In this document: positions 37,985 through 56,804 of the stretch, in pieces
Numbering within the stretch: the first letter of the stretch is position 1
Layout: each line of letters begins with the position of its first letter
Assembly: GCA_964499635.1 (NCBI GenBank)
Contig: CAZCLY010000013.1
Span: 62,329 to 126,328 of the forward strand
Source of the DNA: an uncultured Gemmatimonadota bacterium
GTDB lineage: Bacteria > Gemmatimonadota > Gemmatimonadetes > Palauibacterales > Palauibacteraceae
Direction of reading: 5' to 3'
Length of the DNA: 64,000 bases
Translations under genes and position numbers: made by a program
Notes under the pieces: generated by a model
Database searches by the model: none
Told to the model about the DNA's origin: nothing
The model's input: the letters and a program-made list of their open reading frames with translations, nothing else

Positions 37985-38383
37985 TCAGCGGCCCCCGGTC
38001 GCGGCGTCGAACTGACGCTCGATGAGACGCCGCTCGTGCTCCGTCGGAGCGCCGGCGAGCGCCTCCTCGAGGAAGCGTCGGGCCGCCTCCAGCGAGCCCG
38101 CGCGCGTGTACAGGTTGGCCAGGACGGACACCGCCGGGCCGTGAGGGGGCGCCGCGATCGCCGCCTCGAGATGGTACGCACCGGCCTGCATCCGGTCCAT
38201 CCTCGACGAGCGGGCCAGGTAGGCGAACCCCCGGGCGATGAGTGCCGCGTCCCAGAGCGACCGCTCCTGCCGATCGAGGGGGATGAGCCGCCCCTCGCCG
38301 CCCGGCCTGCGCGTGAGGACCGCGATCAAGCGACCCGACTCGCCCCGGAAGAGGCCTTCCATGTCGGTTTCGGGCGGAGTCAT
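37985..38383 (-). pseudogene. C-terminal fragment of an ECF sigma factor of the DUF6596-containing type (paralog of 54874..56232)
   Basis: The 132-aa ORF aligns only to the C-terminal region of the intact sigma gene. PLDRQERSLWDAALIARGFAYLARSS matches LEDQDRSRWDRGLIEEGATLVQRALSS, and AGAYHLEAAIAA matches FTLQAAIAAVHAE. No sigma-70 region 2/4 is encoded upstream. Confidence 0.5.
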
Positions 38384-38662
38384 GCGGCCTCTCGACCCGG
38401 ACGTCGGCTCCGGGGTTCATGATTCGCCATGTGGTCGTGGCGCAACAGCCGCGCGGGTCACGGATCGGCACCCGGACGATGCGGCAGGCGTCGTATCTCC
38501 CCGCCGCAGGGGACGCGCCCCTGCCCCCGCTACTACTGCCATGATGGCACGATCGTTGCCCCCCCAGGGCCGACTGGTTCGCACGCACGTCCGTAGCCTC
38601 CGGGAGGGGGAGGTGCGTGGTGTCCCGCCGGTCACGGAAAGACCCCTATCGACAGTGACGCC

Positions 38663-39802
38663 GTGCGCACACGACCGCCAGCGTGGCCCGACCGCATCGA
38701 GTCCGTGCTGTCGGTCGTCGGTGCGCGTCCGAATTTCATGAAGCTCGCCCCGGTCGCCCGGGAGCTCGCCCGCCGTCCCGACGTCGGGCACGTGATTCTC
38801 CACACCGGCCAGCACTACGATCGGGAGATGTCGGACGACTTCTTCACCGATCTCGGCATCCCCGAGCCCCACGAGAACCTCGAGGTGGGGTCCGGAAGCC
38901 ACGCGCGCCAGACGGCAGCCATCCTCGAGCGTTTCGAGGCGTTCGTGGCGAGCGACCGACCCGACGTGGTTCTGGTGTACGGCGATGTCAACTCGACGCT
39001 CGCCGCCGCGCTGGTGTGCGCGAAGGCAGGGATCCCGGTGGCGCACGTCGAGGCCGGTCTCAGGAGCGCCGACTGGTCCATGCCGGAGGAGATCAACCGG
39101 ATCGTGACCGATCGTCTCTCGAGCCTCCTCCTCCTGCCATCCCGCGATGCCGCGGACAACCTGCGGGCCGAGGGAGTTCCGTCCGAGCGTCTCGAGTTCG
39201 TCGGAAACGTGATGATCGATTCGCTCGTGCGCGCCTTGCCGGCGGCCCGGGAGCGCGACGCGGCCGCCGGGCTGGGTGTGGAGCCGCGGGGGTACGTCGT
39301 CGTCACGCTCCACCGGCCGTCGAACGTCGACCGACCGGACCGGCTGAGGGCCATTCTGCGGGTCCTCGCGGAGCTGTCCCGTCGGCACCCGGTCCTCTTC
39401 CCGGCGCACCCGCGGACGCGCGATCGGATCGAGACGCTGGGGTGGAGCGTCCCCCCGGGGTGCGATCTCCGGCTCCTCGATCCGGCTCCCTATCTGAGCA
39501 TGTTGTCTCTCCTGGCCTCGTCGCGTCTGGTCATCACGGACTCCGGCGGGATCCAGGAGGAGACCAGTTTCCTCGGGATTCCGTGCGCCACCTTGCGGCC
39601 CAACACCGAGCGTCCGATCACGTGCACGGCGGGGACGAACACCTTGCTTCCGCCGGACGACCCCGGCCTGCTCGAGGCGTGCATCGAGCTGCTGGATGGA
39701 GGACCGACTGGAGACGCCGCGTGCGCGATCGAGCGCTGGGACGGGAGGACCGCCGGCCGCATCGTCGACGTCCTGTGCGATGGGGGGCATTATCCGGTCT
39801 GA
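38663..39802 (+). CDS. wecB: UDP-N-acetylglucosamine 2-epimerase (non-hydrolysing)
   Basis: Collinear with WecB/MnaA: VVGARPNFMKLAPV, HTGQHYD, DVVLVYGDVNSTLAAALVCAKAGIPVAHVEAGLRS, EE.NR, DSGGIQEE. First gene of the sugar cluster. Confidence 0.85.
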   Translation: MRTRPPAWPDRIESVLSVVGARPNFMKLAPVARELARRPDVGHVILHTGQHYDREMSDDFFTDLGIPEPHENLEVGSGSHARQTAAILERFEAFVASDRPDVVLVYGDVNSTLAAALVCAKAGIPVAHVEAGLRSADWSMPEEINRIVTDRLSSLLLLPSRDAADNLRAEGVPSERLEFVGNVMIDSLVRALPAARERDAAAGLGVEPRGYVVVTLHRPSNVDRPDRLRAILRVLAELSRRHPVLFPAHPRTRDRIETLGWSVPPGCDLRLLDPAPYLSMLSLLASSRLVITDSGGIQEETSFLGIPCATLRPNTERPITCTAGTNTLLPPDDPGLLEACIELLDGGPTGDAACAIERWDGRTAGRIVDVLCDGGHYPV

Positions 39803-39833
39803 GACGCCCGGCAGGGGAAGGAACGGTCTCGCA

Positions 39834-40844
39834 TTGAAGATCGTCCGGCTGGCGGTCGGCGTGGCCCTGTTCGGCTGGGTGCTCGCCAGGACCGATGCGC
39901 CCGAGGCCCTTGCCCGTCTGCTCGGAGCTCCCTGGGCCCTCGCGGCCATCGTCGCGATCCCGTTTCTGGGAGCCGCCATCGAGGCCATCAGATTGCACCT
40001 GCTGTTCGAGGCGCAGGGTCTCGACGTGTCGATCCCGTACGCGTATCGCATCGTGGCCATCGCGACGCTGTTCAACTTCACGCTCCCCGGCGGGACGGGC
40101 GGCGACGCGCTCAAGCTCTACTACCTGTGCGGGCGACACCGGGGCCGCGTGCTCGAGATCGGGACCACGCTGCTCGCCGATCGGATCATCGCGCTGTTCG
40201 CGTTCATCGTGGTCACGCTGGCGCTCGGTCTCGCCGTGCTGACGGAGGTGCTCGACATCCCGTCGATCCGGAGCCTGTACGTGTTTCTCGCGGCGGTAGG
40301 CGCCGCCCTCCTCCTCGGAGCGGCGTTCCTCGGTTCGGCCAGGCTGCGGCGCAGCGCTCTCTTGGAGCGGGGCCGGGGACGCTTCTTCCCGCCGGGGAGC
40401 CGTGTCGAGCGCGTGGGACGCGCCGTGGCGACCCTGGCGAGCAATCGCGCCGCGTCCGTGAAGGCCTGCGCGATCTCGGCCGTGGGGCACATCGCCCTGG
40501 CAGCCATGTTCGTCGTCGCGGGGGCGGTCATCCTCCCGGACGCCGGACCGATGACCGTGTGCTTTCTCTCCCTGCTCGGACTCCTGGCCAACGCGCTTCC
40601 GCTCACCCCTGGCGGGCTGGGGGTCGGCGAGGCCGCGTTCGACCGGCTGTTCGGACTGGCCGGCCATGCCGGGGGAGCCGCGCTCCTGCTCGCGTGGCGT
40701 GCCGCCATCATCCCGGTCGGGGCTCTCGGCATGTGGTGGTATGCGCGGGGAGCCGGGTCGGGTGGCGCCCTCCGACCGGATCAGGTTCCGGAACCCGGGA
40801 CCGCCCCACCACTGTCCCGCGACCTGCCCGGGGGTGCCGGGTGA
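39834..40844 (+). CDS. flippase-like membrane protein (lysyl-phosphatidylglycerol synthase TM-region family, UPF0104)
   Basis: TTG 39834, 7 nt after GGAAGGA. About 8 TM segments. Family phrases LLFEAQGLDVSIPYAYRIVAIATLFNFTLPGGTGGDALKLYYL and LANALPLTPGGLGVGEAAF. Confidence 0.6.
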   Translation: MKIVRLAVGVALFGWVLARTDAPEALARLLGAPWALAAIVAIPFLGAAIEAIRLHLLFEAQGLDVSIPYAYRIVAIATLFNFTLPGGTGGDALKLYYLCGRHRGRVLEIGTTLLADRIIALFAFIVVTLALGLAVLTEVLDIPSIRSLYVFLAAVGAALLLGAAFLGSARLRRSALLERGRGRFFPPGSRVERVGRAVATLASNRAASVKACAISAVGHIALAAMFVVAGAVILPDAGPMTVCFLSLLGLLANALPLTPGGLGVGEAAFDRLFGLAGHAGGAALLLAWRAAIIPVGALGMWWYARGAGSGGALRPDQVPEPGTAPPLSRDLPGGAG

Positions 40845-42022
40845 CCGTCCTCGCCGTGTCGGGGTACGGGCCCGGGGAGCGGGGGGTGTGGTCGGCCGGA
40901 CCGATCGGCGCGTACGAACGTGCCGGCGCGGCCGCCGTCGATGCGCCGTTCGCGTGCGCGTTCTCTCGGGCCCGGCATGCGCTGGTCGCGATCCTCCGGT
41001 CGCTCGACGTCACGGGACGAGTCGCCGTCTCGGGCCTCACGTGCTCGGTCGTGCCGATGGCCGTGATGCGGGCCGGTCTCCGCCCGGTGTACGTGGACAT
41101 CGATCGGCGGACGCTCAACATGTCCCCGGACGCCCTGTCGGCGATCGAGCCCTCTCCGGCGGTCGCCCTCTTCCAGCGCACGTACGGCAACGCGTCGGGG
41201 GCCGCGGAGGTGGCCGCCCGCGCCGGGGCCCTCGGCATACCGCTGGTGGAGGATCGCGCACAGGACGTCCCCCTGTCGAACGGGGAGGCCGCGCTCGGCA
41301 GCCACCCGATCGCGGCGCTGTTCTCGAACGACCTGTTGAAGCCCGTACCGGCCGGGGCAGGAGGGTTGGCGGTCACGACCGACCGGGCGCTCGCGAAGCG
41401 GGTGGCGGCGTGGCGCGATCGGGCGCCTGCCGCCGGGCCGCTGGCGCGAGTCGCCATCCGGGCGCGGGCCCTCGGAACCGCGACGCTCCTTCACCCGAAC
41501 ACGTACTGGACGCTGCTCGGCGTGCACGACATGATCGTCCGAGGCGCACGACCGGCCACGATCGATGAAGCGCTCGAGCGCGAGTTCGGAGAGCCCCGCA
41601 CGCTCTCCGCCTGGGAAGCCCGGCGTGGTCTCTCCTGGATGCGCCGGGCAGAGGAGGTCGCGGCGCACCGGACGGCCCGCTCCATCGAGTACGCCGACGG
41701 CCTTGCCGGGCTCACGCGGTGCGAGATGCTCCCATGGCCGGCGGCACGACCGTACTACCTGTTCCCGGTCCTGGTCGACGACAAGGCCGCGTTGCTCGAC
41801 GAGGCCCGCCGTCGCCGCCTCGAGCTGGTCGACTGGCCGGGCTCGACGCCCCTGTACGGCGTGAGGCGCGCGAAGGAACTGGCCATCTACGGATACCAGC
41901 CGGGGTGCTGTCCGAACGCCGAAGCGGTCGCCACGCGCCTCGTCGGGCTCCCCACCCACCCGCGGGTCGGGCCGGACACGAGCCGGCGCCTGCTGGAGCT
42001 CCTGCGAGATCGATATGAATAG
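40841..42022 (+). CDS. DegT/DnrJ/EryC1/StrS-family (sugar aminotransferase-like) protein
   Basis: GTG 40841 overlaps the upstream stop (GTGA). Fold-type I order conserved: RPVYVDIDRRTLNMSPDALSAIEPSPAVALFQRTYGNASGAAEVAARAGALGIPLVEDRAQ, then FSNDLLKPVPAGAGGLAVT with a candidate PLP lysine. Divergent from canonical DegT. Confidence 0.6.
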   Translation: MTVLAVSGYGPGERGVWSAGPIGAYERAGAAAVDAPFACAFSRARHALVAILRSLDVTGRVAVSGLTCSVVPMAVMRAGLRPVYVDIDRRTLNMSPDALSAIEPSPAVALFQRTYGNASGAAEVAARAGALGIPLVEDRAQDVPLSNGEAALGSHPIAALFSNDLLKPVPAGAGGLAVTTDRALAKRVAAWRDRAPAAGPLARVAIRARALGTATLLHPNTYWTLLGVHDMIVRGARPATIDEALEREFGEPRTLSAWEARRGLSWMRRAEEVAAHRTARSIEYADGLAGLTRCEMLPWPAARPYYLFPVLVDDKAALLDEARRRRLELVDWPGSTPLYGVRRAKELAIYGYQPGCCPNAEAVATRLVGLPTHPRVGPDTSRRLLELLRDRYE

Positions 42023-42073
42023 GATGCCCCCCGTATCGACGGGACCCCGTTCCCTGCCGGTTCAGGCGAAGGC

Positions 42074-42832
42074 GTGATGGCCGTTTCCACGCAAGAGAAG
42101 CGATCCGAGAAGGCCTTCTACGACGACCTGTTCGGCCGCCGTCAGCGGTTCGATCAGTTCCAGATGGAGATCTACGAGCGGATCGCACACACGGCGGCCG
42201 ACGGAGCGCCGGGGCGCCGGACGATCGAGCTGGGGTGCGGCTCGGGCTCACAGGCTATCTGCCTCGCCCGGTGCGGGATGCAGACCCTGGCGACCGACCT
42301 GTCCATCGAGGGCTGTCGTGTCGCGAGAGCCACCGTCGAGGGGGAGGGCCTCTCGATCGCGATCCTGAACGCCGATGCGGAACACCTGCCCGTCTCGGAT
42401 CGAGTGTTCGACGCCTGCATCTGCGGGTTGCTTCTGCACCATTTCGCGGACTTCTCGCGGGTCGCCGACGAGATCGCCCGTGTCCTCCGGCCCGGCGGGG
42501 TCGTGGTCGCGCTCGATGCCAACGCCCACAACCCCGCGCAGTGGGTGTTCATGAACGTCCTGCACCGTCTGAAACGGAATCCGCGTCTCACCCCCAACCA
42601 GCGGGCGTTGTGGAAGCGGGAGCTGGTGTCCGTATTCGGCGCGCGGGGCTTCGAGGGATTCCAGTTCGAATCGGTGAAGAGCGAGCTCAGGAAGGACTGG
42701 CTGGGCGATTCTCCGGGCGCGTGGCTCAACTACCACACGCGGAAGCTCGTCCTCGGACTCACCGACCTGGTCCTGCCCCCCATCGCCCGGGGAAACCTGC
42801 TCCTGGCCGTGTTCCGCAAGTCCGACCCGTGA
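42074..42832 (+). CDS. class I SAM-dependent methyltransferase
   Basis: Motif I IELGCGSGSQA. Motif post-I ATDLS. LLLHHFAD motif II region. Confidence 0.8.
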   Translation: MMAVSTQEKRSEKAFYDDLFGRRQRFDQFQMEIYERIAHTAADGAPGRRTIELGCGSGSQAICLARCGMQTLATDLSIEGCRVARATVEGEGLSIAILNADAEHLPVSDRVFDACICGLLLHHFADFSRVADEIARVLRPGGVVVALDANAHNPAQWVFMNVLHRLKRNPRLTPNQRALWKRELVSVFGARGFEGFQFESVKSELRKDWLGDSPGAWLNYHTRKLVLGLTDLVLPPIARGNLLLAVFRKSDP

Positions 42833-42857
42833 CCCGTGACCCGGTCGATCGCTCTCG

Positions 42858-43922
42858 ATGCTGACCGTCGAGCGCCTGTCCGAATCATCCCCGGGCGAAC
42901 CGGCGGAGCTGTGGGATGCCTATATCGCGGGCAACCGGGATGCCGACCTGTATCACACGAGGGAATGGGCGGCGCTCATCCGGGAGGTGTTCGGGCACCG
43001 GCCCCACTACCTCCTCGCCCGGCGTGGCTCCCGCCCGGTCGGCGTGCTGGCCATATTCGAGATCCGGCTTCCGCTGCTCGGGCGAAAGCTGGTGTCGATG
43101 CCGTACGATGCGGGATCCGGAGGACCGCTCGCCGACGACCCGGAGGCGGAACGGGCCCTCGCCGGGCACGCACTCGCGCTCGCGAAAGAGCTGCGCGCGC
43201 GCTCGCTCGAGCTCAGGTGCGGCCACGACCGTCCCTCCCTGGAGAGCATGTCGTTCCACGTCGATCACCCGATCATGTTGTCGGAGACGTGCCTCGAGGC
43301 TGGGTCCGAGGCGTGGGAGCGGGTCGCCCCGGATCAGCGGAAATCCCTCTCGAAGGCGGAGCGGCGGGGCGTGCGCGTCAGGTTGGCCGATGATCCGGCG
43401 GACTATGATGCGTTCTACGAGGTCTATCTGCGCGTGTTCCGGGATTTCGGAACGCCGCCGTACGCGCGGCGCTACTTCGTGGCGGTGTCGAGGTCGCTCG
43501 TCCCGCACGCCAGGGCGCAGCTGCTGCTGGCGGAGCGCGAAGGCGCCGTCATCGGCGGAGCGCTGCTGTTCTGCTTCGGTTCCACGGCGATCAGCAAGTT
43601 CGCCGTGGTGCTACCCGACGCGGTCGAGTACCGGACATTCTCCGCCCTGTACGGAAAGACGCTCGACATCTGTATCGAGCGCGGATTCCGGAAGGTCGGA
43701 TGGGGCACCTCCTCCCGAACGCAGACCGGGCTGATCGACTTCAAGGAGCGGTGGGGGGCCGAGACCCGTCCGGTCACTATCTACACGCGCACGAGGTCGG
43801 GTCGGCCGGTCTCGCTCGAGAAGTATTACGACTCCGATCCTCTGGCGCGGAAGCTCTGGCGCCGCCTTCCCGTCCGCCTGACGCCGGTGCCGGGCCACAC
43901 GTTGAACCGCTGGTTCTGCTGA
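42858..43922 (+). CDS. FemAB-like / Acetyltransf_6 (GNAT-fold) family protein of the exopolysaccharide-locus-associated type
   Basis: About 350 aa. Profile typical of FemAB-related proteins found in EPS loci (WAALIREVFGHRPHYLLARRGSRPVGVLAIFEIR...; C-terminal LLAEREGAVIGGALLFCFGSTAISKFAVVLPD..FSALYGKTLDICIERGFRKVGWGTS). Confidence 0.7.
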   Translation: MLTVERLSESSPGEPAELWDAYIAGNRDADLYHTREWAALIREVFGHRPHYLLARRGSRPVGVLAIFEIRLPLLGRKLVSMPYDAGSGGPLADDPEAERALAGHALALAKELRARSLELRCGHDRPSLESMSFHVDHPIMLSETCLEAGSEAWERVAPDQRKSLSKAERRGVRVRLADDPADYDAFYEVYLRVFRDFGTPPYARRYFVAVSRSLVPHARAQLLLAEREGAVIGGALLFCFGSTAISKFAVVLPDAVEYRTFSALYGKTLDICIERGFRKVGWGTSSRTQTGLIDFKERWGAETRPVTIYTRTRSGRPVSLEKYYDSDPLARKLWRRLPVRLTPVPGHTLNRWFC

Positions 43923-43939
43923 GTGGAGCGTACCCTGGC

Positions 43940-44806
43940 ATGATGCCGGAGGACCGTCCACCCGGGACCGTTCACATCGACCTCGACGGCGCGAAGCATA
44001 TCTTCGCGGCCCACGGGTGGGAGTATCCCCTCGACCGCGACGACCTCTTCCTCTCCGGGCTCGAAGCGGCGCTCGACTTCCTGGGGCGCGCCCGGGTGTG
44101 CGCGACCTTTTTCGTGATCGCGGAGGATCTCGGGGATCCGGCCAAGCGGGAGGCGCTCGGCGAGGTCGTCGCGTGCGGTCACGAGCTCGGGTCCCACGGC
44201 TGGAGTCACCGACGGCTGAGCGGATTGGGAGCCGCGGAGCTGGATCGCGAGATCGCGGACAGCCGCAAGGCGATCGAGGACGGGCTCGGCGTCTCCGTGA
44301 GGGGCTTCAGGGCCCCCGGATTCGACCTCGATCGAGCGGTCCTCGAGCGCATCGCGGAGGCCGGATACGCGTACGATTCGTCGTTGCATCCATCCCGCGG
44401 TGGGGCCCGCCGGCTCGGTGTCGACCGCATCCCGGCCCACCCGCATCGTCCCCTCGCCGGGCCCCTCCTCGAGCTCCCGCTGCCGGGGCACGGCGGGCTG
44501 CCGCTCCCCTTCCACCCCAGCTACGCCCTGGTGCTCGGCAAGTGGTATTTCGGCACCGGGTTACGACGCTTCGCGCGGCAGCGGGCACCGCTGGTTCTCC
44601 TGTTCCACCTCACCGATTTCGCACGACCGCTGTCGGAGGGTATCCGCGGTCCCGCGCAGCGGCTGTTCACCATCTCGCATCGATCGCAGCCGGACAAGCT
44701 CGACTCTTGCAGTGGCATGCTGAATCTCGCGCGCGAGCGCTTCCGCCTGGTAGCGACCAGCGAGATCTTGGCGCACCTCTCCGGGGGGGAAGAGGCGTAC
44801 CCGTGA
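43940..44806 (+). CDS. polysaccharide deacetylase-family protein (NodB homology domain)
   Basis: NodB motifs: ATFFVIA (TFDDG-like region replaced), HELGSHGWSH, RGFRAPG. Double ATG at 43940/43943. Confidence 0.8.
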   Translation: MMPEDRPPGTVHIDLDGAKHIFAAHGWEYPLDRDDLFLSGLEAALDFLGRARVCATFFVIAEDLGDPAKREALGEVVACGHELGSHGWSHRRLSGLGAAELDREIADSRKAIEDGLGVSVRGFRAPGFDLDRAVLERIAEAGYAYDSSLHPSRGGARRLGVDRIPAHPHRPLAGPLLELPLPGHGGLPLPFHPSYALVLGKWYFGTGLRRFARQRAPLVLLFHLTDFARPLSEGIRGPAQRLFTISHRSQPDKLDSCSGMLNLARERFRLVATSEILAHLSGGEEAYP

Positions 44807-46992: not shown

Positions 46993-47015
46993 GCGCGGTC
47001 GACTGTGCGGCCCGC

Positions 47016-48656
47016 ATGTACTGGGATGCGATTCGGACCGAGGCTCCACGAGTCCTCGGCCTCATGGACCGGGAGGGCATGAGCCCGACTGCCGGTTGCT
47101 GCGACCGGAACTACTGGGCCTGGAAGTTCGTCGACTTTCCGGGCGCAAGGTTCCAGGAGTCGCTGTGCGCGCTGGCGTTCGTGTGGAGCGAGTCCGCGCC
47201 CGACAGCCCGTTCCGGGGGAGCCCGACGCTTCTGGAGTGGATCCACCTCGGCCTGGAGTTCTGGTGCGGCCTGCAACACCGCGACGGCAGCTTCGACGAG
47301 GCGTATCCGTTCGAGCGCTCGCTGGCCGCGACCGCCTTCACCACCTTCTACGTTTCGGAGGCGGTCGAGATGCTGGGGGACGCGATCCGCGACCACACCC
47401 GGGAGCGGGTCGTCGAAACCGTGCACGACGCCGGGCGGTGGCTGCTCGCCAACGACGAGTCGCACGGCGTGCTCTCGAACCACCTCGCGGCGGCCGCCGC
47501 GGCTCTCGCGCACGCCCACCGGCTCACCGGAGTGCGGGCGCTCGGGGACCGCAGTCGGTACTTCCTCGGCCTCATCCTGTCCCGTCAGTCCGACGAGGGG
47601 TGGTACGAGGAATACGGCGGGGCGGACCCCGGCTACCAGACGCACGGCAGCTTCTATCTGGCGCGCTGTCTCGAACTGGCGCCCGACGAGAACCTACGGC
47701 GGAGTCTGTATCGATCGGTGGACTTCATCGCCCACTTCGTGCACCCCGATCGCAGTCTGGGCGGCGAATACGCCAGCCGGAACACCAAGACCTACTATCC
47801 GGCCGCCTTCGAGATGCTGGCCGCCGAGCACGAGGGAGCGGCCTGGATCGCCGGACACATGCGGCCGGGTGTGGCGGTGGGCGCCGCGGCGAGCCTGCGC
47901 GGCATCGATGCATACAACTACTTCCCGTTCCTCAACAACTATGTGTTCGCGCTGCGAGCCTGCGCCGAGCGCGATGGGGATGGAGGGATGGCGCGGGATC
48001 CGACCCCCGGGAGCGGCTGCACGCGCTTTCCGGATGCCGGCCTCCTGAGGGTCCGGCGACCGAGCTACGAGCTGTTCATGGGGACGACCAAGGGCGGCGT
48101 GCTGAAAGTGTTCGACCGGTCGACCGGAGAGCTCCTGCTCTCCGACTGCGGGTACGTGGGCCGGCTGTCCGACGGGCGGCTGTGCTCGAGCCAGTACCTC
48201 GACCCCCGGCGGCCCGTCGAGACGCGCGATGACGAGGTCATCGTGGAAGGCTCCTTCATGGAGCTCGGTCGCCCCGCGATGACCCCCGCACGGTTCATCG
48301 GCTTCCGCCTGTTCAGCCTGACCGTGGGACGGGTTCCCCCTGTGGGGCGCTGGCTCAAGAGACTCCTGGTCCGTGTCCTCATCCACCGCAAGCGGCCGAT
48401 TCCGCTGCGCTTCGAGCGTCGCGTTCGGTTCGCGGAGGGCATCGTGGAAGTGGAGGATCGCATCGGGGGACCGGGGCTGGCGCGTCTCGAGAGATTGGAG
48501 TGGGCCCCGCTGCTGACCACGATCCACATGGGCTCTGCCCGCTACTACGTGGCCAACGAGCTCGCGAGCGGCGCGGAGCGCTCCATCGACCTGCGCGAGC
48601 TCGCGACGGGGGCTCCGCTGCGCCGCTCCGCCCGCCCCGTTCGCGCGGACGCCTGA
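47016..48656 (+). CDS. conserved hypothetical protein (547 aa), possibly an alpha/alpha-toroid polysaccharide-modifying enzyme (heparinase II/III-like)
   Basis: ATG 47016; an alternative TTG at 46989 overlaps the upstream stop. Protein-like throughout (WIHLGLEFWCGLQHRDGSFDEAYPFERS, DEGWYEEYGGADPGYQTHGSFYLARCLE). No family confidently recognised. Family assignment is a guess from neighbourhood and size. Confidence 0.5.
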   Translation: MYWDAIRTEAPRVLGLMDREGMSPTAGCCDRNYWAWKFVDFPGARFQESLCALAFVWSESAPDSPFRGSPTLLEWIHLGLEFWCGLQHRDGSFDEAYPFERSLAATAFTTFYVSEAVEMLGDAIRDHTRERVVETVHDAGRWLLANDESHGVLSNHLAAAAAALAHAHRLTGVRALGDRSRYFLGLILSRQSDEGWYEEYGGADPGYQTHGSFYLARCLELAPDENLRRSLYRSVDFIAHFVHPDRSLGGEYASRNTKTYYPAAFEMLAAEHEGAAWIAGHMRPGVAVGAAASLRGIDAYNYFPFLNNYVFALRACAERDGDGGMARDPTPGSGCTRFPDAGLLRVRRPSYELFMGTTKGGVLKVFDRSTGELLLSDCGYVGRLSDGRLCSSQYLDPRRPVETRDDEVIVEGSFMELGRPAMTPARFIGFRLFSLTVGRVPPVGRWLKRLLVRVLIHRKRPIPLRFERRVRFAEGIVEVEDRIGGPGLARLERLEWAPLLTTIHMGSARYYVANELASGAERSIDLRELATGAPLRRSARPVRADA

Positions 48657-48657
48657 T

Positions 48658-50589
48658 ATGTGCGGCATCTGCGGGTACGTGGGAATCCACGAGCCGGGGC
48701 TGCTTCGATCGATGACCGAGGCGATCGCGCACCGGGGTCCGGACGGGCAGGGGTGCTTCGCGGAGGAGGCCATCGGGCTCGGTCACCGGAGGCTGAGCAT
48801 CATCGACGTGGCGGGCGGTCAACAGCCGATCTTCAACGAGGATCGTTCGGTGGTGTTGATCGCGAACGGCGAGATCTACAACCACCGGGAGCTCCGTTCC
48901 GAGCTCGAAGCGAAAGGCCACCGCTTCCGCTCGCGGTCCGACTCGGAAGTTCTGGTCCACCTGTACGAGGAGGAGGGCCCGGAAGGCGTGCGGCGGTTGG
49001 GCGGGATGTACGCCTACGCCATCTACGATACGCGGGATCGCTCGCTGTTCCTCGCGCGCGATCGACTCGGCATCAAGCCCCTGTACTACGCGGACCTCCC
49101 GGGCGGCCGGTTCCTGTTCGCGTCGGAGAGCAAGTCGATTCTCCGCTACGGGGGACTCCGGCCGACCCTCGACCCCCGCGCCGTGCACGACTACCTGGCG
49201 CTGCGATACGTGCCCGGGCCGGGAGGGATGATCGCCGAGATCCGCAAGCTCCCGGCCGCGCATTGGGCGCGATACCGCGATGGACGCCTGGAGCTCAGGC
49301 GCTATTGGCAGCCCGAGCTGTACGAGGGCCCGTTCCCGTACCGGGACGAGGAGTACCTCGAAGGTTTCGCGCAGCGCTTCGAGATGAGCGTAGAGCGACG
49401 TCTGATGTCGGAGGTGCCCTTCGGCGCCTACCTGAGTGGCGGGCTCGACTCGAGCGTCATCGTCGCCGCCATGGCGGCGCGCGTCTCGACCCCGGTCCGC
49501 ACGTTCGCCGTCGGGTTCGACTATGCGCACGACGAGCTCGCGGCGGCGTCCGAGACCGCCCGCCTGCTGGGGTGCGAGCACACCGAGATCGCCTGCACGA
49601 TCGACGACATCGAGCTGCTCCCCGACCTCGTGTACCATCTGGACGAGCCGCTCGGCGATCCCATCGTGATCCCCATGCACCGCCTCGCGCGGACGGCCAA
49701 GAGCCACGTCACCGTGATCCAGGCCGGGGAGGGAGCGGACGAGATCCTCGGCGGCTATCTGTTCCACAAGGCCCTGTTGGGTGGCTGCCGACTGAATCGG
49801 GCCGTGCCCGGCTTCATTCGCCGCGGCCTGCTCGGCCCAGCGCTGCGGGCGACCCCGGCCCGCGTCCTGAACCTCGCGTTCAGCTACCCGGCGGCGTTGG
49901 GTGGGCGCGGCAAGCAGAAGCTGCTGGACTACCTCGATCTCACGGGTGCCGACCGGCTTCCGGAGGCGTATCGGCACCTGATCTCGCTGTTCGACGCGCG
50001 CGATGTCGAGGCGCTCTACGCGAACGAGTTCGAGCGGGCCCTCGGCGATGCACCGCCACACGAACTCGCGTCGCCCGACGGTGCGGCCCCGTACCTGAAC
50101 CGCATCCTGCACCTCCAGTTCGCGCACTGGCTCCCGGACGACATCCTCATGAAGCAGGACAAGATGTCGATGGCCAGCGGCGTCGAGGTGCGGGTTCCCT
50201 TCCTCGACCACGAGCTCGTCGAGTACGTGCTTCGCGTCCCCCCGCGCCTCAAGATCCGGGGTCTGACGTCGAAGCACCTGCTGCGCCGCTACGCGTCGCG
50301 AGTCCTCCCCGATCGGATCGTTCGGCGCCGCAAGATGCCGTTCTATCTCCCGCTCGAGAAGTACGCCCGACACCCGACCTTCCTGGCGTTCGTGGACGAG
50401 ACGCTCTCGGAGAAGACGGTGAGGGAGCGGGGGCTGTTCCGGCCGGCCGGGGTGCAGGCTCTCCGTGACCGGGCCGTGGGCGGAGAGTTCGTGTACGTCA
50501 AGCAGCTCTTCAGCCTGGTGGTGCTCGAGCTGTGGATGCGGGGGGTGTTCGACCGGTCGGGCCGGACGGGCGCGAGGCGAGCGGGATGA
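48658..50589 (+). CDS. asnB: asparagine synthetase B-type glutamine amidotransferase
   Basis: N-terminal MCGICG nucleophile Cys. GATase-2 domain. SGGLDSS PP-loop. 643 aa. Starts 1 nt after the upstream stop. Confidence 0.9.
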   Translation: MCGICGYVGIHEPGLLRSMTEAIAHRGPDGQGCFAEEAIGLGHRRLSIIDVAGGQQPIFNEDRSVVLIANGEIYNHRELRSELEAKGHRFRSRSDSEVLVHLYEEEGPEGVRRLGGMYAYAIYDTRDRSLFLARDRLGIKPLYYADLPGGRFLFASESKSILRYGGLRPTLDPRAVHDYLALRYVPGPGGMIAEIRKLPAAHWARYRDGRLELRRYWQPELYEGPFPYRDEEYLEGFAQRFEMSVERRLMSEVPFGAYLSGGLDSSVIVAAMAARVSTPVRTFAVGFDYAHDELAAASETARLLGCEHTEIACTIDDIELLPDLVYHLDEPLGDPIVIPMHRLARTAKSHVTVIQAGEGADEILGGYLFHKALLGGCRLNRAVPGFIRRGLLGPALRATPARVLNLAFSYPAALGGRGKQKLLDYLDLTGADRLPEAYRHLISLFDARDVEALYANEFERALGDAPPHELASPDGAAPYLNRILHLQFAHWLPDDILMKQDKMSMASGVEVRVPFLDHELVEYVLRVPPRLKIRGLTSKHLLRRYASRVLPDRIVRRRKMPFYLPLEKYARHPTFLAFVDETLSEKTVRERGLFRPAGVQALRDRAVGGEFVYVKQLFSLVVLELWMRGVFDRSGRTGARRAG

Positions 50590-52322
50590 GTGCGCCGGCG
50601 CTTACGCGGCCGCGCGGGCCGCTCGTCGGGCTCGCCCTGGGGGCGTTCGCGTGCTACGCGCCGGGCTTCTGGTGGGGGGCGCCGCACGCCACGTCTGCGG
50701 ACAGGGTCCGGCCCTGGGGTGTCGACGACGAGACCCCGCTCGGCACGCTCGGACAGGTCGCGGACATCGTCGCGCCGCGACCCCGCCGCAATGCCGGCTA
50801 CCCGAAGATGCACGCGCTCATGTCGACCGCCGCGATGGCCCCCTACATCGTGTGGAGCCGGGCGACGGGTCGGATGTCGGGGTTCGACGACGAGTACCCG
50901 TTCGGGTTCGCCGACCCGGTGACCGGGATCGAACGGCTCTCGAACGTCGCGCACCTGCTCTCCGTCCTGCTGGGCGTGGGGATCGTGCTGGCCGCGTTCG
51001 ATGTGGGGCGTGTGCTGTGGACACCGGGGACCGGCGTCCTGTCGGCATCGTTCGCTGCGGTGGTCTTCCCGATGTTCTACTACGCCCGCACCGGCAACGT
51101 GGACGTGCCGATGTTGTTCTTCATAGCCCTGGCCCTGTCCGCCTATGTCCGGGCGTTGCGCGGTGGGGTCACTGCGCGCCGCGCGGTGTGGGCGGGGATC
51201 TGGATCGGGCTTGCGGTCGCGACGAAGGAATCCGCGTTCGGCGCCGTGGCCCCCATCCCGCTCGTCATGGCGTGGATCGCGGTCCGGAATCCCGCCGAGG
51301 CCGCGCCCGACGGCATCCGGAAGCCGCTCTTGTGGGGTGGCCTCGCGTGCGTCCTCGCCTACGGTCTCGGCAGCGGGCTGTTCCTGGATCCGGGCTGGTA
51401 CATCGATCACGTCCGATTCCTGCTGGCCCGGACCGCCACCGTGGCCCGGGAGGGCGAGGGGGTCGTTCGGAGCTACCCACGTACCTTGTCCGGCGACCTC
51501 GCCTACCTGGGTGCGGGGGGTCGGTATCTGGTCTCCGCCATGAACCCCGTGATCTTCGGGCTGGGGGCGGTCGGGGTGGCGCTGGGGCTTCGCGAGCGTC
51601 GCACGCGACTGCTGCTGATCCCGGCGTTGGGATACGCGATCTTCATGTTCCTCACGGTCCGCACGCTTCAGCTCCGCTACGTGCTGCCATTCGCGTACGT
51701 GCTCGCGATCCTCGCCGGCGGGGCGGTGGCATCCGCGTGGCGCTCCGATCGCGCGTGGCTGCGAATAAGCGCCATCGCGGCGGCCACCACCGGTCTGGGG
51801 ATCGGGCTCCTGTGGGGTGGCGAGCTCACGTACGAGATGGTGCGTGACTCCCGGAACGACGCGGCCCGATGGCTGGCCGCGAGGACCGAGAGCGGGGACC
51901 GGGTCGCCTACTTCGGGCCCATCCAGAAGCTGCCGCCCCTCGAGCGCGGTGTCGTCTCCGACCAGTCCGCTCCCTTTGAGGGGATGTGGGCCACGCGTCC
52001 GGATGACGCCGTCGCGCCGAGGAAGATCCTGGATCACTGGGAGCGAACGCGGCCCGCCTTCGTCATCGTCATGCCGGACCACGTCAGCTATCCGGGCGTG
52101 CCACACAACATCACGCTGCCGCCCGAGCTCTTCGACGCCCTCGAGGCGGGCGCCACGCCCTTCCGGCCGGTCGCCCGATTCCGGACGGAGCCGCTCCTTC
52201 CGTGGACGGGCATGCCGGCGCTCGACTACCCGACCGTCAATCCGACGATTCGGATCTACGAGCGAGTCGATGGAGCGGCGCGAGCCCACGGAGGGGACCG
52301 GCCACCCGGGGGTGGACGTTGA
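50586..52322 (+). CDS. glycosyltransferase family 39-like (GT-C fold, PMT/ArnT-type polyprenyl-phosphate-sugar-dependent transferase)
   Basis: ATG overlaps the asnB stop (ATGA). 10+ TM segments. N-terminal periplasmic-loop DE-type motif region (GVDDETPLG). Large hydrophilic C-terminal domain. Layout typical of GT39/GT83. Confidence 0.75.
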   Translation: MSAPALTRPRGPLVGLALGAFACYAPGFWWGAPHATSADRVRPWGVDDETPLGTLGQVADIVAPRPRRNAGYPKMHALMSTAAMAPYIVWSRATGRMSGFDDEYPFGFADPVTGIERLSNVAHLLSVLLGVGIVLAAFDVGRVLWTPGTGVLSASFAAVVFPMFYYARTGNVDVPMLFFIALALSAYVRALRGGVTARRAVWAGIWIGLAVATKESAFGAVAPIPLVMAWIAVRNPAEAAPDGIRKPLLWGGLACVLAYGLGSGLFLDPGWYIDHVRFLLARTATVAREGEGVVRSYPRTLSGDLAYLGAGGRYLVSAMNPVIFGLGAVGVALGLRERRTRLLLIPALGYAIFMFLTVRTLQLRYVLPFAYVLAILAGGAVASAWRSDRAWLRISAIAAATTGLGIGLLWGGELTYEMVRDSRNDAARWLAARTESGDRVAYFGPIQKLPPLERGVVSDQSAPFEGMWATRPDDAVAPRKILDHWERTRPAFVIVMPDHVSYPGVPHNITLPPELFDALEAGATPFRPVARFRTEPLLPWTGMPALDYPTVNPTIRIYERVDGAARAHGGDRPPGGGR

Positions 52323-52381
52323 CCAGAACGACTTCGGACGATCCGAGGGCGGGTCGCGAAGCGACGGAGAGACGTAGAGAG

Positions 52382-53461
52382 ATGAGCATGAGAACCAATC
52401 CCGTGGTAGACATTCCGGGGCCCATGGCGACCCCCGGCGAAGCGGCCGTGGACGTGTCCGTCGTGTGCCCCTTCTACAATGAGGAGAAGATCCTCGAGTC
52501 CGCGGTGCGGCGACTGTTGGCACGTCTGGAAGCGATGGAGGAGTCGTGGGAGCTGCTCATTGTCAACGACGGCTCGACGGACGGTTCGGGCGAGATCGCG
52601 GCGCGGCTCGCTGCGGGGCACGAACGCCTCCGATGTGTGGGATACACGACCAACCGCGGGCGCGGGTACGCGCTCAGAACGGGAATCGGGGCGGCCCGGG
52701 GAGCCGTCGTGATCACCACCGAGATCGATCTCTCCTGGGGCGAGGACATCGTCGAGCGGCTCCTCGCCGCAATGAACGAGTGGCCCGATGCCGACATCGT
52801 CGTCGCGAGTCCGCATCTGCCGGGCGGCGGGTACAGGAACGTGCCCGGCAAGCGGGTCTTCCTGAGCAGGTTCGGGAATCACGTGATCCGGGCCTGCATG
52901 TCGCAGGCCGTCACGATGAACACGGGTATGACGCGCGCGTACCGACGCGGAGTGATCCGCTCGCTGCCCCTTCGCGAGGATCGCAAGCAGTTTCATCTCG
53001 AGGTCCTGCTCAAGGCGACCGCGCTCGGCTACCGCGTACGCGAGATCCCCACGGTCCTCGAGTGGCTGGAGTACAAGCATGAGGGTCGGCGGGTGAAGCG
53101 GAAGAGCGCGTCGCAGCTCCGACCGGTCATCAAGTCGCACACCCTGTTCAGCCTGTTCGCCGAGCCGCTGCGGTACGTGTGGGCCATGAGCCTGGCCGCG
53201 TTGTTCGTCGGCATGACCTCGCTGGTGTGGGCGATCGTGCTCACGGCCCAGGGCGAGGTGTCCGTGTACATGGCCCTGCTGAGCGTGCTGATGGTCATCC
53301 TGTCGATCGTGCTGTTCGTGCTCGGCGTGGTCCTCCAGCAGGGGAACGCGATCCAGCGGGAGCTGTGGATGACCCAGCGCCAGCTCAACCGCCTGCCGGG
53401 GATGTCGGAGGCGGACGAGCGCGTGCGGGACGCCTCTCCCCCGCCGCCCCCCCGGGCGTGA
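52382..53461 (+). CDS. glycosyltransferase family 2 (polyprenyl-phosphate sugar synthase type, DPM1/ArnC/GtrB-like) with C-terminal TM helices
   Basis: GT-A signature VSVVCPFYNEE, LLIVNDGSTDGS, DxD-like ITTEIDLS. Two C-terminal TM helices (LAALFVGMTSLVWAIVL, ALLSVLMVILSIVLFVLGVVL). GGAGAG RBS. Confidence 0.85.
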   Translation: MSMRTNPVVDIPGPMATPGEAAVDVSVVCPFYNEEKILESAVRRLLARLEAMEESWELLIVNDGSTDGSGEIAARLAAGHERLRCVGYTTNRGRGYALRTGIGAARGAVVITTEIDLSWGEDIVERLLAAMNEWPDADIVVASPHLPGGGYRNVPGKRVFLSRFGNHVIRACMSQAVTMNTGMTRAYRRGVIRSLPLREDRKQFHLEVLLKATALGYRVREIPTVLEWLEYKHEGRRVKRKSASQLRPVIKSHTLFSLFAEPLRYVWAMSLAALFVGMTSLVWAIVLTAQGEVSVYMALLSVLMVILSIVLFVLGVVLQQGNAIQRELWMTQRQLNRLPGMSEADERVRDASPPPPPRA

Positions 53462-53497
53462 GGGAGGCGACGGGGGGCCGGTGCTCCCCGCTCTCGT

Positions 53498-53860
53498 CTA
53501 CGGCGGCTCCGGGACGAACAGCGGCCGCACCGCCACGTACCACCCGAGCTCCTCGCCCATGCGGCCGGCGGGGTGGAGGGACGCGAGCTCGACCGCCTCC
53601 TCCAGGTCGTCGGCCTCGACGACGAACACGCCACCGATCTCCTTCGACTCGATGAACGGCCCGTCGGTGATCAGGCGCTCTCCGCCCCGGCTGCGCACGA
53701 TCCTGCCGCCTCCCGCGAGGCCCGCGTACAGCTGCACGCGCTCGTCGGCCGCGAGCTCCTCGTCGTACGCGCGGCAGCGATCCATGTAGACCTGCCGCTC
53801 CTCCTCGGTCAGCTTCTCCCACGCCGATCCGTCCCCACAGGCCAGGCACAGGTACTTCAT
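53498..53860 (-). CDS. YCII-related domain protein
   Basis: ATG 53860 after GGAGGAGG; overlaps the stop of the upstream VOC gene (ATGA). Profile MKYLCLACGDGSAWEKLTEEERQVYMDRCRAYDEEL...LITDGPF.E.KE..GG....EA.DL.EA.E.A...P. The 60 upstream codons of the track ORF are not protein-like. Confidence 0.75.
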   Translation of the reverse strand: MKYLCLACGDGSAWEKLTEEERQVYMDRCRAYDEELAADERVQLYAGLAGGGRIVRSRGGERLITDGPFIESKEIGGVFVVEADDLEEAVELASLHPAGRMGEELGWYVAVRPLFVPEPP

Positions 53861-54276
53861 CCGTCCTCCTCCGCCAGGTTGCCGTTGATGATCCACGCGG
53901 TCCCGTAGCGGTCGACGAGCATGCCGAAGCGCTCGGCCCAGAAGGTCCCCTGTATGGGCATCTTCACGTCGGCCCCATCCGCGAACGCGGCGAAGATGCG
54001 CTCGGCATCGGCGGCCCCGTCGACGTTGAGCGCCACCCACATGGTCCGCGACGTGCCGTCGCCCGGAGGCGGTCCGTCGGAGCCGTACAGCTCGGCGCCG
54101 CCGGCGATCAGCCGGGCGTGCATGATCCCGCGGTGGGACTCCGGCGGCATCTCGCTCGCCATCGGCGACTCGCCGTACGTCAGGATCCCGGTGATCTCGC
54201 CGCCCAGGACGTCACGGTAGAACTCGAACGCCTCCCGGCAGCGCCCATCGAAGTTGAGGTATGGAATGGACCGCAT
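53857..54276 (-). CDS. VOC-family (glyoxalase/PhnB-like) protein
   Basis: ATG 54276 after GGGAGA. PhnB-like profile: MRSIPYLNFDGRCREAFEFYRDVLGGEI ... GTFWAERFGMLVDRYGTAWIIN. Confidence 0.75.
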   Translation of the reverse strand: MRSIPYLNFDGRCREAFEFYRDVLGGEITGILTYGESPMASEMPPESHRGIMHARLIAGGAELYGSDGPPPGDGTSRTMWVALNVDGAADAERIFAAFADGADVKMPIQGTFWAERFGMLVDRYGTAWIINGNLAEEDG

Positions 54277-54860: not shown

Positions 54861-54873
54861 CGGGTCTCCTCGA

Positions 54874-56232: not shown

Positions 56233-56289
56233 GGCGTGTTTCCCTGGGTGTGCGGAACGACCGCTCGCGGAAGGTGGCGGGTGTCCCGA

Positions 56290-56786: not shown

Positions 56787-56804
56787 CAGGCCAGGAGACA
56801 CGCT

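Follow-up and report, generated by a model that had tools for sequence, protein, structure and literature searches.

A gene cluster shared across bacterial phyla that most likely builds a modified amino sugar acid and attaches it at the outer face of the cytoplasmic membrane

Which sugar is made, and to what is it attached, by a cluster that joins amino-sugar tailoring enzymes to a lipid-carrier glycosyltransferase, a flippase-like protein and a GT-C-type transferase? We studied this question for an uncultured Gemmatimonadota bacterium, in a 64,000-nt stretch of contig CAZCLY010000013.1 (GenBank assembly GCA_964499635.1, positions 62,329 to 126,328; hereafter the window), which carries eleven such genes at 38663–53461. 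With a probability of roughly 0.6, the cluster most likely builds a heavily modified amino sugar acid, loads it onto a lipid carrier and attaches it at the outer face of the cytoplasmic membrane. Our confidence in any specific structure of that sugar is much lower than in this general scheme.

The genes, labelled g1 to g11 in gene order, all lie on the + strand. Coding regions were taken from the listing of open reading frames (ORFs) together with a frame analysis of the window (70% G+C) based on the G+C content of third codon positions (GC3), and families were assigned by Pfam and NCBIfam profile searches judged against the model cutoffs. The eleven co-directional ORFs are densely packed, with GC3 values of 0.77–0.88, and Pfam supports every family that an earlier reading, made from the letters of the DNA alone (the sequence-only reading), had named for them. 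The signs of translational coupling which that reading had listed are also exactly in place: g2 and g3 overlap in GTGA at 40841–40844, g6 and g7 in GTGA at 44803–44806 and g9 and g10 in ATGA at 50586–50589, and the TGA stop of g8, ending at 48656, is followed by a single base (48657) and the ATG of g9 at 48658. The remaining intergenic gaps are ≤70 nt, we saw no excess of promoter- or terminator-like sites within the cluster, and an Rfam search of 37800–54900 at E ≤0.1 returned zero matches. The eleven genes most likely form one operon with two halves, one for tailoring (g1, g3–g9) and one for delivery (g11, g2, g10). For comparison with other genomes, a g8 profile was scanned against one genome per species, which gave 80 loci (numbered with an L below); the counts that follow rest on the 45 of these, from 45 other species, with full 10-kb flanks around the g8 homologue.

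The delivery half starts with g11 (52382–53461), a family 2 glycosyltransferase (GT2; PF00535 Glycos_transf_2, 91 bits) of the type of GtrB, ArnC and dolichol-phosphate-mannose synthase (DPMS). Its matches in the PDB include ArnC (3.9e-15), the GtrB protein sll0501 over its full length (residues 20–319) and an archaeal Dol-P-Man synthase. The protein ends in a hydrophobic transmembrane (TM) hairpin at about 265–325, and among 46 orthologues there is no variation at D63, D67, E114 and D116. From this architecture, g11 is predicted to be a polyprenyl-phosphate sugar synthase (GtrB/ArnC/DPMS) and not a soluble or processive GT2. Among the NCBIfam models, it also matched PpgS (weakly, 31.6 bits) and, over its full length, PgfS. 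Translation most likely starts at ATG 52382, which is preceded by GGAGAG and leaves a 59-nt gap to g10; the alternative GTG at 52202 would give a 120-nt overlap with that gene. The candidate flippase g2 (39834–40844) is a polytopic LPG_synthase_TM membrane protein resembling the flippase domain of MprF (PF03706, 110 bits), with several TM-like segments and a score of 41 bits, slightly below the cutoff, for the TIGR00374 'flippase-like domain'. Its start is probably TTG 39834, preceded by GGAAGGA, with alternatives at 39696 and 39780, and in 18 of the 45 related loci its orthologue adjoins a GT-C or DegT gene.

The last delivery gene, g10 (50586–52322), encodes a membrane glycosyltransferase of the GT-C fold with about ten or more TM segments and a soluble C-terminal domain, assigned to the periplasm. 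The sequence WGVDDETP follows TM1; within it W44-x-x-D47-D48 is invariant in 24 homologues, and so is K214-E215. The AlphaFold2 (AF2) model of g10 (predicted local distance difference test, pLDDT, 84) had 46 Foldseek matches with E <0.05, all of them GT-C enzymes (or PIGU). ALG12 came first (4.8e-10), then ALG9, STT3/PglB/AglB, DPY19, ArnT, Pmt4 and Aft/Emb. The modelled structure finds its matches only among GT-C enzymes working with polyprenyl-linked donors. The sequence-only reading had called this protein a GT39-like GT-C enzyme, and of the two parts of that name the fold stood, backed by the AF2/Foldseek result and by PF13231 (PMT_2, the broad ArnT/PMT family; 41.6 bits, cutoff 26.1), whereas the GT39 subfamily found no specific support. 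The score for PF02366 (PMT) was only slightly over its cutoff (24.7 bits against 22.7), Pmt4 was 29th in the Foldseek list with a partial alignment, no MIR domain was detected by Pfam, and a profile of the g10 family searched against PDB sequences found no PMT and no match informative for a GT-C subfamily. ArnT (5ezm), at E 5e-6 and a TM-score of about 0.4, ranked below ALG12, ALG9 and STT3. On this evidence from profiles and the model, g10 is best called 'GT-C fold, PMT_2 family', with neither GT39 nor ArnT specifically supported.

In the tailoring half, the most conserved marker of the cluster is g8 (47016–48656, alternative start 47064). Listed by the sequence-only reading as an unknown 547-aa protein, it is indeed present (546 aa), but it is not without a family. 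Local profile libraries gave zero matches and the RefSeq label is 'hypothetical protein'; a precomputed match to PF25840 (Ulvan_lyase_N) is found on g8 and likewise on nearly all of more than 790 close homologues (54–61% identity). A g8 profile search returned 1033 representative clusters at E ≤1e-30 (clusters at 50% identity, about 1000), and in the family alignment column identity averages 64% and long stretches, in which His, Tyr, Asn, Arg and Glu are frequent, do not vary at all. The predicted model (pLDDT 78) consists of an (alpha/alpha)6-toroid followed by a beta-sandwich, and best matches dermatan-sulfate epimerase and heparinase III; when the toroid is taken by itself, N-acylglucosamine 2-epimerase, cellobiose 2-epimerase and terpene cyclases are similar too. 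We therefore regard g8, on its predicted fold, as a putative epimerase- or lyase-type enzyme acting on a sugar acid. No hydrophobic segment and no signal peptide were found in it, and for lack of the former we place it in the cytoplasm. Natural fusions in some species combine the g8 domain with a GNAT acetyltransferase at the N or C terminus, with Amidohydro_1 or with a GH30C-like beta-sandwich (P0311, P0281, P0362, P0342). Such fusions with GNAT or an amidohydrolase suggest that the substrate is a monomeric sugar rather than a polymer, and they link g8 to the addition or removal of N-acyl groups on small molecules. Free Amidohydro_1 genes flank the cluster in L086 and L090.

Three further tailoring enzymes carry intact catalytic motifs. 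The amidotransferase g9 (48658–50589), a glutamine-dependent, WbpS-like member of the AsnB family (GATase_7 and Asn_synthase, 309 bits), has the N-terminal Cys2 (MCGICG) and the SGGLDS PP-loop and matches TIGR03108 over its full length (513 bits, cutoff 817); it is predicted to convert a sugar carboxylate to the carboxamide. The deacetylase g6 (43940–44806) is of the CE4/NodB type and VimE-like (PF01522 Polysacc_deac_1, 68 bits). Its motifs HIDLDG, SHGWSH and RAPGF represent the intact D-x-D, HxxxH and RxP of CE4 enzymes, it is cytoplasmic with no TM segment, and its PDB matches are generic CE4 enzymes. The best NCBIfam match of g6 was TIGR03006 (81 bits, cutoff 276), and none of the NCBIfam ArnD models matched at E ≤0.001. 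The divergent g3 (40841–42022) belongs to the DegT/WbpE/ArnB family of pyridoxal-phosphate-dependent sugar aminotransferases or dehydratase-type enzymes (PF01041 DegT_DnrJ_EryC1, 94.5 bits). Its K167 aligns with the Schiff-base lysine of the SFHxxK motif of DegT enzymes and is invariant in 18/18 orthologues, which also keep an E137-D138-x-A-Q (EDxAQ) motif, and 2po3, WbpE and ArnB are among its PDB matches. Together, Pfam, the PDB matches, K167 of g3, the TM hairpin of g11 and the g10 fold uphold the DegT, GT2 and GT-C assignments of the sequence-only reading.

The epimerase g1 (38663–39802) is a non-hydrolysing UDP-GlcNAc 2-epimerase of the WecB/WbpI type (PF02350 Epimerase_2, 332 bits; TIGR00236, 291.6 bits, cutoff 210). 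It starts at GTG 38663 or 38705, either of which fits TIGR00236 better than ATG 38738. Public metagenome gene calls place the WecB start at that ATG, so that the conserved N-terminal VVGARPNF strand is cut off (window 38663–38760). A class I S-adenosylmethionine (SAM)-dependent methyltransferase is encoded by g4 (42074–42832; Methyltransf_11, 80.7 bits), for which no NCBIfam model reached its cutoff. The product of g5 (42858–43922) is a FemAB-like or VimA-like acyl- or aminoacyl-transferase (PF13480 Acetyltransf_6, 51 bits, with FemAB_like sub-threshold) that matches TIGR03019 pepcterm_femAB over its full length (166.8 bits, cutoff 260).

The 729-aa oxidoreductase g7 (44803–46992) combines two Pfam domains, a medium-chain dehydrogenase/reductase (MDR) half (ADH_zinc_N) and a GFO_IDH_MocA half. 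In the MDR half, LGYS stands in place of GHE and SxGTE in place of the Cys motif in 38/38 orthologues. As the catalytic zinc ligands are absent across the whole family, we classify this half as a zinc-free MDR, with likeness to the quinone or enoyl reductase type, and reject a zinc alcohol dehydrogenase; zinc-free MDRs elsewhere mostly reduce C=C bonds or quinones. In the Gfo half, EKP and an E-x-C-H-x-x-D motif, with its conserved His and Asp, are invariant. The PDB neighbours of g7 were inositol and sugar dehydrogenases together with sorbitol and secondary-alcohol dehydrogenases. WbpB was not among the 60 best, and an assignment as WbpB is not supported by this ranking.

To follow these genes through the related loci, we mapped the eleven window proteins and the Pfam-labelled genes of four reference loci and then clustered all locus ORFs. 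The 80 loci span Acidobacteriota, Gemmatimonadota, Planctomycetota, Nitrospirales, delta-, alpha- and gammaproteobacteria, Omnitrophota and others. Gene order is kept rather than scattered across Acidobacteriota, Gemmatimonadota, Nitrospirales, Planctomycetota and the delta-, alpha- and gammaproteobacteria, as the sequence-only reading required. AsnB adjoins g8 in 38 of the 45 loci and the GT2 gene is found in 35, followed by the bi-domain oxidoreductase (28), a GT-C or other large polytopic membrane protein (27), the deacetylase (25), the methyltransferase (20), the FemAB-like and LPG_synthase_TM flippase-like genes (18 each), DegT (17) and WecB (14). GT4 genes (8), hexapeptide-repeat genes (7), UDPG_MGDP_dh genes (5) and Wzx-like genes (2) are less frequent. 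Two sub-operons are apparent, the first often comprising GT-C, flippase-like, methyltransferase, DegT and FemAB genes and the second the deacetylase, oxidoreductase, g8, AsnB and GT2. Of the 18 loci with a FemAB gene, 17 also have the deacetylase and 15 have DegT; the flippase-like and GT-C genes occur together in 15 loci, and one alone in 8 and 3. Across phyla, the GT2 is 44–68% identical, compared with 29–48% for the GT-C. None of the genes that flank the cluster in the window lie beside it elsewhere, and we therefore take the conserved unit to end with the eleven genes. As for annotated public records, the distant match on a Phyllobacterium plasmid (31.6% identity) carries no annotation and was set aside as a source.

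Other arrangements of the locus bear on what the enzymes may do. A second type (L020, L030, L034, L036, L040, L042, L068), found in Planctomycetota, Chromatiaceae, Pseudomonadales and Ferruginivarius, consists of GT-C, GT2, a deacetylase-carbamoyltransferase fusion, LPG_synthase_TM, g8 and AsnB, sometimes with WecB and a UDP-glucose-dehydrogenase-type (WecC-like) gene as a pair next door. The 878-aa fusion, a CE4 deacetylase joined to a NodU/CmcH-type carbamoyltransferase, replaces the oxidoreductase, DegT and FemAB genes of the first type. FemAB and the fusion never co-occur; given this mutual exclusion and the company that FemAB keeps with the deacetylase (17/18), the simplest reading of the gene contents is that an N-acetyl group would be removed and the amine re-acylated, with an amino acid in the FemAB type and a carbamoyl group in the fusion type. 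In alphaproteobacterial operons, WecB, a 12-TM protein of 651 aa with no Pfam match, AsnB, the methyltransferase, the oxidoreductase, g8 and GT2 stand together. No redox enzyme other than the bi-domain oxidoreductase is encoded there, which is the main reason to suspect that this oxidoreductase can supply the carboxylate for AsnB. Both of these independent architectures retain the pair of GT2 and large membrane protein. A Bradyrhizobium sp. locus (L079, 636–14184) has the core order GT2, AsnB, oxidoreductase, methyltransferase, g8. To one side of this core lie a GDP-mannose-dehydratase-like gene and ManC, and to the other the genes of an unknown 359-aa protein and an MBOAT O-acyltransferase. 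In four Planctomycetales loci (L037, L041, L043, L044), the genes close to g8 include a PMT_2 GT-C and an intramembrane protease of the Rce1-like (CPBP) kind, and the other cluster genes are absent.

In 7 of the 80 loci, the cluster has sulfatase genes (PF00884 with SGSH_C) as neighbours. The Bradyrhizobium locus (L079) contains a formylglycine-generating enzyme, and L090 an adenosine 5′-phosphosulfate (APS)-kinase/CysN gene. These sulfate-related genes, at 16399–21605 in L085, 1039–2892 and 1–821 in L090 and 17112–17975 in L079, hint at a link with sulfated glycans.

From the genes observed here, with their catalytic motifs, the folds predicted for them and their synteny across phyla, we infer an order of steps, a sugar and a set of acceptors; tailoring may take place on the nucleotide sugar or on the lipid-linked sugar. 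The tailoring half would work in the cytoplasm and turn a UDP-N-acetylhexosamine (UDP-HexNAc) into a multiply modified amino-hexuronic acid amide. The WecB enzyme g1 would epimerise UDP-GlcNAc to the manno configuration, and g7 would oxidise the sugar, either to provide the keto group for the DegT-type transaminase g3 or to form a C-6 carboxylate; the latter is considered because no UDP-sugar 6-dehydrogenase is encoded here. Acting at C-5/C-4 of the uronate, g8 might catalyse epimerisation or elimination, and g9 would amidate the carboxylate in the manner of WbpS. The 2-N-acetyl group could then be stripped by g6 and the amine re-acylated by g5, probably with an amino acid, as proposed for VimE and VimA, with g4 adding a methyl group. 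In the delivery half, g11 would join the sugar to polyprenyl phosphate on the cytoplasmic side of the membrane, g2 would flip the lipid-linked sugar, and g10 would transfer it in the periplasm to an acceptor for which lipid A or the lipopolysaccharide (LPS) core, another glycan and a protein are candidates.

Several points weigh against this scheme. The function of the cluster is deduced from sequence, and the GT-C fold of g10 gives no clue to the acceptor. Neither a WbpA/WecC-type 6-dehydrogenase nor a WbpD-type acetyltransferase is present in the window, and in the absence of the former the carboxylate source is a guess, although both genes may be located in another part of the genome. The link between oxidoreductase and DegT is weak, as 12 loci have both, 16 only the oxidoreductase and 5 only DegT. 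A GT-C gene is adjacent in just ∼60% of loci, and in a complete Longimicrobiales genome the oxidoreductase, g8 and AsnB alone are adjacent, with the GT-C orthologue elsewhere, beside a Wzx-like gene. Furthermore, g5, g6 and g9 score below the cutoffs of the curated PEP-CTERM models (167/260, 81/276 and 513/817), and some related loci hold GT4, UDP-glucose-dehydrogenase-type or Wzx-like genes.

The alternative that survives best is a cassette that supplies or decorates sugars for a conventional Wzx/Wzy- or ABC-dependent polysaccharide, whose initiation, polymerase and exporter genes would lie elsewhere in the genome, with the GT2 building chains and the GT-C acting as a ligase or polymerase-like enzyme. 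The related loci L086 and L087, with their GT4s, second AsnB and UDP-glucose-dehydrogenase-type gene, would fit this idea, as would the Wzx-like Polysacc_synt gene that adjoins the cluster in L085 and the separated GT-C gene in L089. The trio of FemAB, deacetylase and AsnB is moreover typical of XrtA/PEP-CTERM exopolysaccharide (EPS) loci (PMC7468200), and the comparable sugar of Porphyromonas gingivalis sits in an undecaprenyl-pyrophosphate (Und-PP)-linked LPS glycan. However, the 64-kb window holds no such polymer genes. The sequence-only reading had noted the lack of Wzx, Wzy, Wzz, an initiating phosphoglycosyltransferase and an O-antigen ABC exporter, and with nearly all window genes annotated we found none of these and no exosortase; a fragment of a standard O-antigen or EPS locus was therefore rejected. 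None of the three outcomes that the sequence-only reading had named as refuting it came about, and its general interpretation is supported. Among the related loci, GT4 (8/45) and Wzx-like genes (2/45) are rare next to the GT2 (35/45), which has the architecture of a polyprenyl-phosphate transferase and not of a soluble or processive enzyme, and the flippase-like and GT-C genes travel together (both in 15 loci). We consider such a cassette unlikely.

The locus likely makes no polymer, as the sequence-only reading had concluded, yet GT-C enzymes can polymerise from polyprenyl-phosphate sugars. A second alternative is accordingly that the GT-C is a periplasmic polymerase, like mycobacterial MptA, Emb and Aft, which builds a homopolymer or side chains from a polyprenyl-phosphate donor without Wzy. 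The donor-side genes would be identical to those of the transfer scheme, and Foldseek places g10 among GT-C enzymes that include the chain-extending ALG9 and ALG12, AftA/B/D and EmbA/B/C. Set against this are the single GT-C gene and the lack of a primer-forming enzyme; the sequence fits single and repeated transfer alike. This possibility seems to us quite improbable.

Equally doubtful is a more specific version of envelope attachment, in which the product, an amino-acid-capped sugar amide, would be an analogue of the P. gingivalis 'linking sugar' on the envelope, with its alpha-amine serving as the nucleophile for sortase-like protein anchoring by an exosortase or intramembrane protease in Acidobacteriota, Gemmatimonadota, Planctomycetota and others. 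Three leads exist, namely that PEP-CTERM-associated models are the best matches of g5, g6 and g9, that an Rce1-like protease gene stands beside g8 and GT-C in several Planctomycetales loci, and that a like speculation was raised for VimA-like loci by the authors of PMC7468200.

A further candidate product is a membrane glycolipid made by a 'split MprF', in which a lipid-linked sugar would receive its aminoacyl group from the FemAB-like enzyme at the inner leaflet, before the LPG_synthase_TM protein flips the charged lipid outward. MprF itself consists of an aminoacyl-tRNA-dependent GNAT-like synthase and a PF03706 flippase domain. The two families do co-occur (both in 14 loci, one alone in 4 and 4), usually in one sub-operon with DegT. 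But a GT-C accompanies the flippase-like gene and has no role in a glycolipid model, and the type II loci keep the flippase-like gene with no FemAB, so we judge this product to be less probable still. Finally, a soluble secondary metabolite (of aminoglycoside or nucleoside type) or a compatible solute is very improbable: natural-product clusters, too, often contain DegT, methyltransferase and AsnB genes, a carbamoyltransferase as in type II and B12-radical-SAM genes as in a few loci, but a polyprenyl-phosphate-type GT2 with a flippase-like protein and a GT-C is machinery for envelope glycoconjugates, and no antibiotic-type exporter, resistance gene or regulator is conserved with the cluster.

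Some further features were noted around the cluster. Directly upstream, at 37985–38383 (−), lies a 132-aa remnant corresponding to the C-terminal DUF6596/TPR part of an extracytoplasmic function (ECF)-type sigma factor. It is 34% identical to residues 415–469 of a full-length YCII-sigma-DUF6596 gene across the cluster, at 54874–56703 (−), and the missing 5′ half of the remnant would fall at the cluster start, so the cluster may have inserted into or beside a sigma-factor gene. An MsbA-like ABC exporter (33146–35008, +; TIGR02203, 446 bits, cutoff 602) is located 3.6 kb upstream, separated by a divergent ADOP gene; in none of the 80 related loci does such an exporter accompany the cluster. The window also has four duplicated FtsX/MacB permeases of the ADOP family (12452–15319, 17388–20036, 35028–37814 and 57162–59864; TIGR03434, 820–849 bits for the two tested), two of which are preceded by PadR regulators (20030–20467 and 56475–57158). 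Such an ADOP set is characteristic of Acidobacteriota-like genomes and has no relation to the cluster. Further away, the window encodes an 801-aa protein with ankyrin repeats and a serine beta-lactamase-like domain (9454–11859, −) and two Ser/Thr protein kinases fused to long TPR arrays (2513–5035, + and 6963–9332, +).

The cluster is not confined to one metagenome bin, as the operon occurs in at least seven phyla dominant in soils and sediments. If true, the proposed scheme would describe a widespread, uncharacterised modification of the Gram-negative envelope in three groups of little-known surface chemistry, the Acidobacteriota, Gemmatimonadota and Planctomycetota. It would place the dermatan-sulfate-epimerase/heparinase-like fold in a new, biosynthetic and cytoplasmic use, might add a route to sugar acids that does without the usual UDP-sugar 6-dehydrogenase, and would mark a junction of Wbp/Vim tailoring with Arn/Gtr-type delivery. 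The cluster also offers a handle on the product of the FemAB/deacetylase/AsnB trio in PEP-CTERM loci. Should protein anchoring apply, C-terminal attachment of proteins to glycans would extend far beyond Bacteroidota and the acceptor of PEP-CTERM-type sorting would be identified.

How does the cluster compare with known systems? For g8, the closest are dermatan-sulfate epimerase 1, heparinase III and PL35 lyases, which share its two-domain architecture of (alpha/alpha)-toroid and beta-sandwich and abstract the C-5 proton of a uronic acid, a reaction predicted for g8 by analogy of fold. The identity is just 12–14%, and unlike these enzymes g8 is cytoplasmic, lacks a signal peptide and is encoded in a biosynthetic operon.

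The XrtA/PEP-CTERM EPS trio (TIGR03019 FemAB, TIGR03006 deacetylase, TIGR03108 amidotransferase) provides the best NCBIfam matches of g5, g6 and g9. Membership in a PEP-CTERM system was rejected, as all three scores are below the cutoffs and no exosortase, EpsH or PEP-CTERM gene is found in the window. The same families lead to the Wbp/Vim pathway of P. gingivalis and Tannerella forsythia. Its product is a 2-N-seryl or 2-N-glycyl-3-N-acetyl hexuronic acid or amide (Veith et al. 2020, PMC7468200), and 2-N-seryl-3-N-acetylglucuronamide is the sugar amide-linked to type IX secretion cargo (PMC7468200, PMC13086638). VimE is the proposed 2-N-deacetylase; VimA of P. gingivalis, which matches TIGR03019, determines which of serine and glycine goes onto N-2, as a swap between species showed; and deletion of PGN_1234/WbpS, of the TIGR03108 family, abolishes the uronamide, WbqG of the same family being another maker of uronamides (PMC7468200). 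A ManNAc-uronamide that is methylated also occurs in the T. forsythia O-glycan, whose gene cluster includes wecB, wecC, asnB and methyltransferases (PMC6120980).

At the family level, the eleven genes match the enzyme set WbpB, WbpE, WbpI, VimE, VimA and WbpS, and the trio g5, g6 and g9 matches VimA, VimE and WbpS through shared NCBIfam models and motifs; TIGR03019 and TIGR03108 are the best NCBIfam matches of g5 and g9. The sequence-only reading had seen the NodB-type gene as a counterpart of ArnD, but NodB, FemAB and AsnB are better explained together as VimE, VimA and WbpS (PMC7468200). Since the combination of FemAB, CE4 and AsnB is that of the published Wbp/Vim pathway, the tailoring half is a relative of described chemistry. 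It differs in the lack of WbpA and WbpD (no UDPG_MGDP_dh or hexapeptide-repeat gene in the window), in g7, which is fused to a zinc-free MDR domain and not specifically WbpB-like, and in g8 and the methyltransferase, for which Wbp/Vim has no counterpart. Delivery differs as well: GT4 enzymes and WbaP of P. gingivalis bring the sugar into an LPS glycan linked to Und-PP, whereas the cluster encodes a GT2 of the GtrB type together with a flippase-like protein and a GT-C. No type IX secretion system (T9SS), exosortase or rhombosortase genes were found in the 64-kb window.

With the Arn system (PmrHFIJKLM), the cluster has a logic in common, in which a UDP-sugar is oxidised and transaminated, N-acylated, loaded onto undecaprenyl phosphate by a GT2 with a TM hairpin, deacylated by a NodB-type enzyme, flipped and transferred by a GT-C. 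ArnC is the best PDB and NCBIfam match of g11, ArnB is among the matches of g3 and ArnT among those of g10, which resembles ALG, STT3 or Pmt enzymes at least as much as it does ArnT. Orthology with Arn was rejected, as the scores for NF008658 (ArnB, 43.4 bits against 631) and NF007986 (ArnC, 66.9 against 529) place the likeness at the level of family and architecture. ArnA, a short-chain dehydrogenase/reductase (SDR) decarboxylase joined to a formyltransferase, has no counterpart: neither an SDR nor a Formyl_trans_N gene occurs in the window, and Formyl_trans_N was seen in one related locus only, L090. The flippase candidate belongs to PF03706 and not to the small multidrug resistance (SMR) pair ArnE/F, of which no small genes are present, and g8, AsnB, the FemAB-like enzyme, the methyltransferase and WecB are additions relative to Arn.

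Francisella FlmF2/NaxD/FlmK, Bordetella LgmABCD and mycobacterial PpgS/Rv3779 modify lipid A or the cell wall with amino sugars via a polyprenyl-phosphate HexNAc and a deacetylase. The logic of the cluster is alike, as these systems have a GT2 for the synthesis of polyprenyl-P-HexNAc, a deacetylase that exposes the amine and a GT-C that acts on the extracytoplasmic side to transfer the sugar. They move plain GalN or GlcN, however, without AsnB, a FemAB-like enzyme, g8 or the bi-domain oxidoreductase, and the deacetylase family differs (YdjC-type for NaxD, CE4 in the cluster). Similarly, the Gtr-type systems (GtrA/GtrB/GtrC; CsbB/GtcA/YfhO; streptococcal PgfS/PgfM) resemble the cluster in that single sugars are added to an existing glycan or protein by a GT2 of the GtrB type working with a small flippase and a polytopic transferase, but they use plain UDP-Glc or UDP-GlcNAc, have no tailoring enzymes and rely on a GtrA-type flippase instead of PF03706.

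Our literature search found nothing that describes both halves together, g8, or the bi-domain oxidoreductase in such a role; the papers on Wbp/Vim and on T. forsythia alone concern parts of the system. The sequence-only reading had held that the exact combination is not a described pathway, and this stands for the combination and for g8, but not for the tailoring chemistry, which is partly the published chemistry of Wbp/Vim. The cluster joins two known logics, with tailoring that is partly of the Wbp/Vim kind and delivery that follows the logic of the Arn, Gtr, Flm/NaxD, Lgm and PpgS systems.

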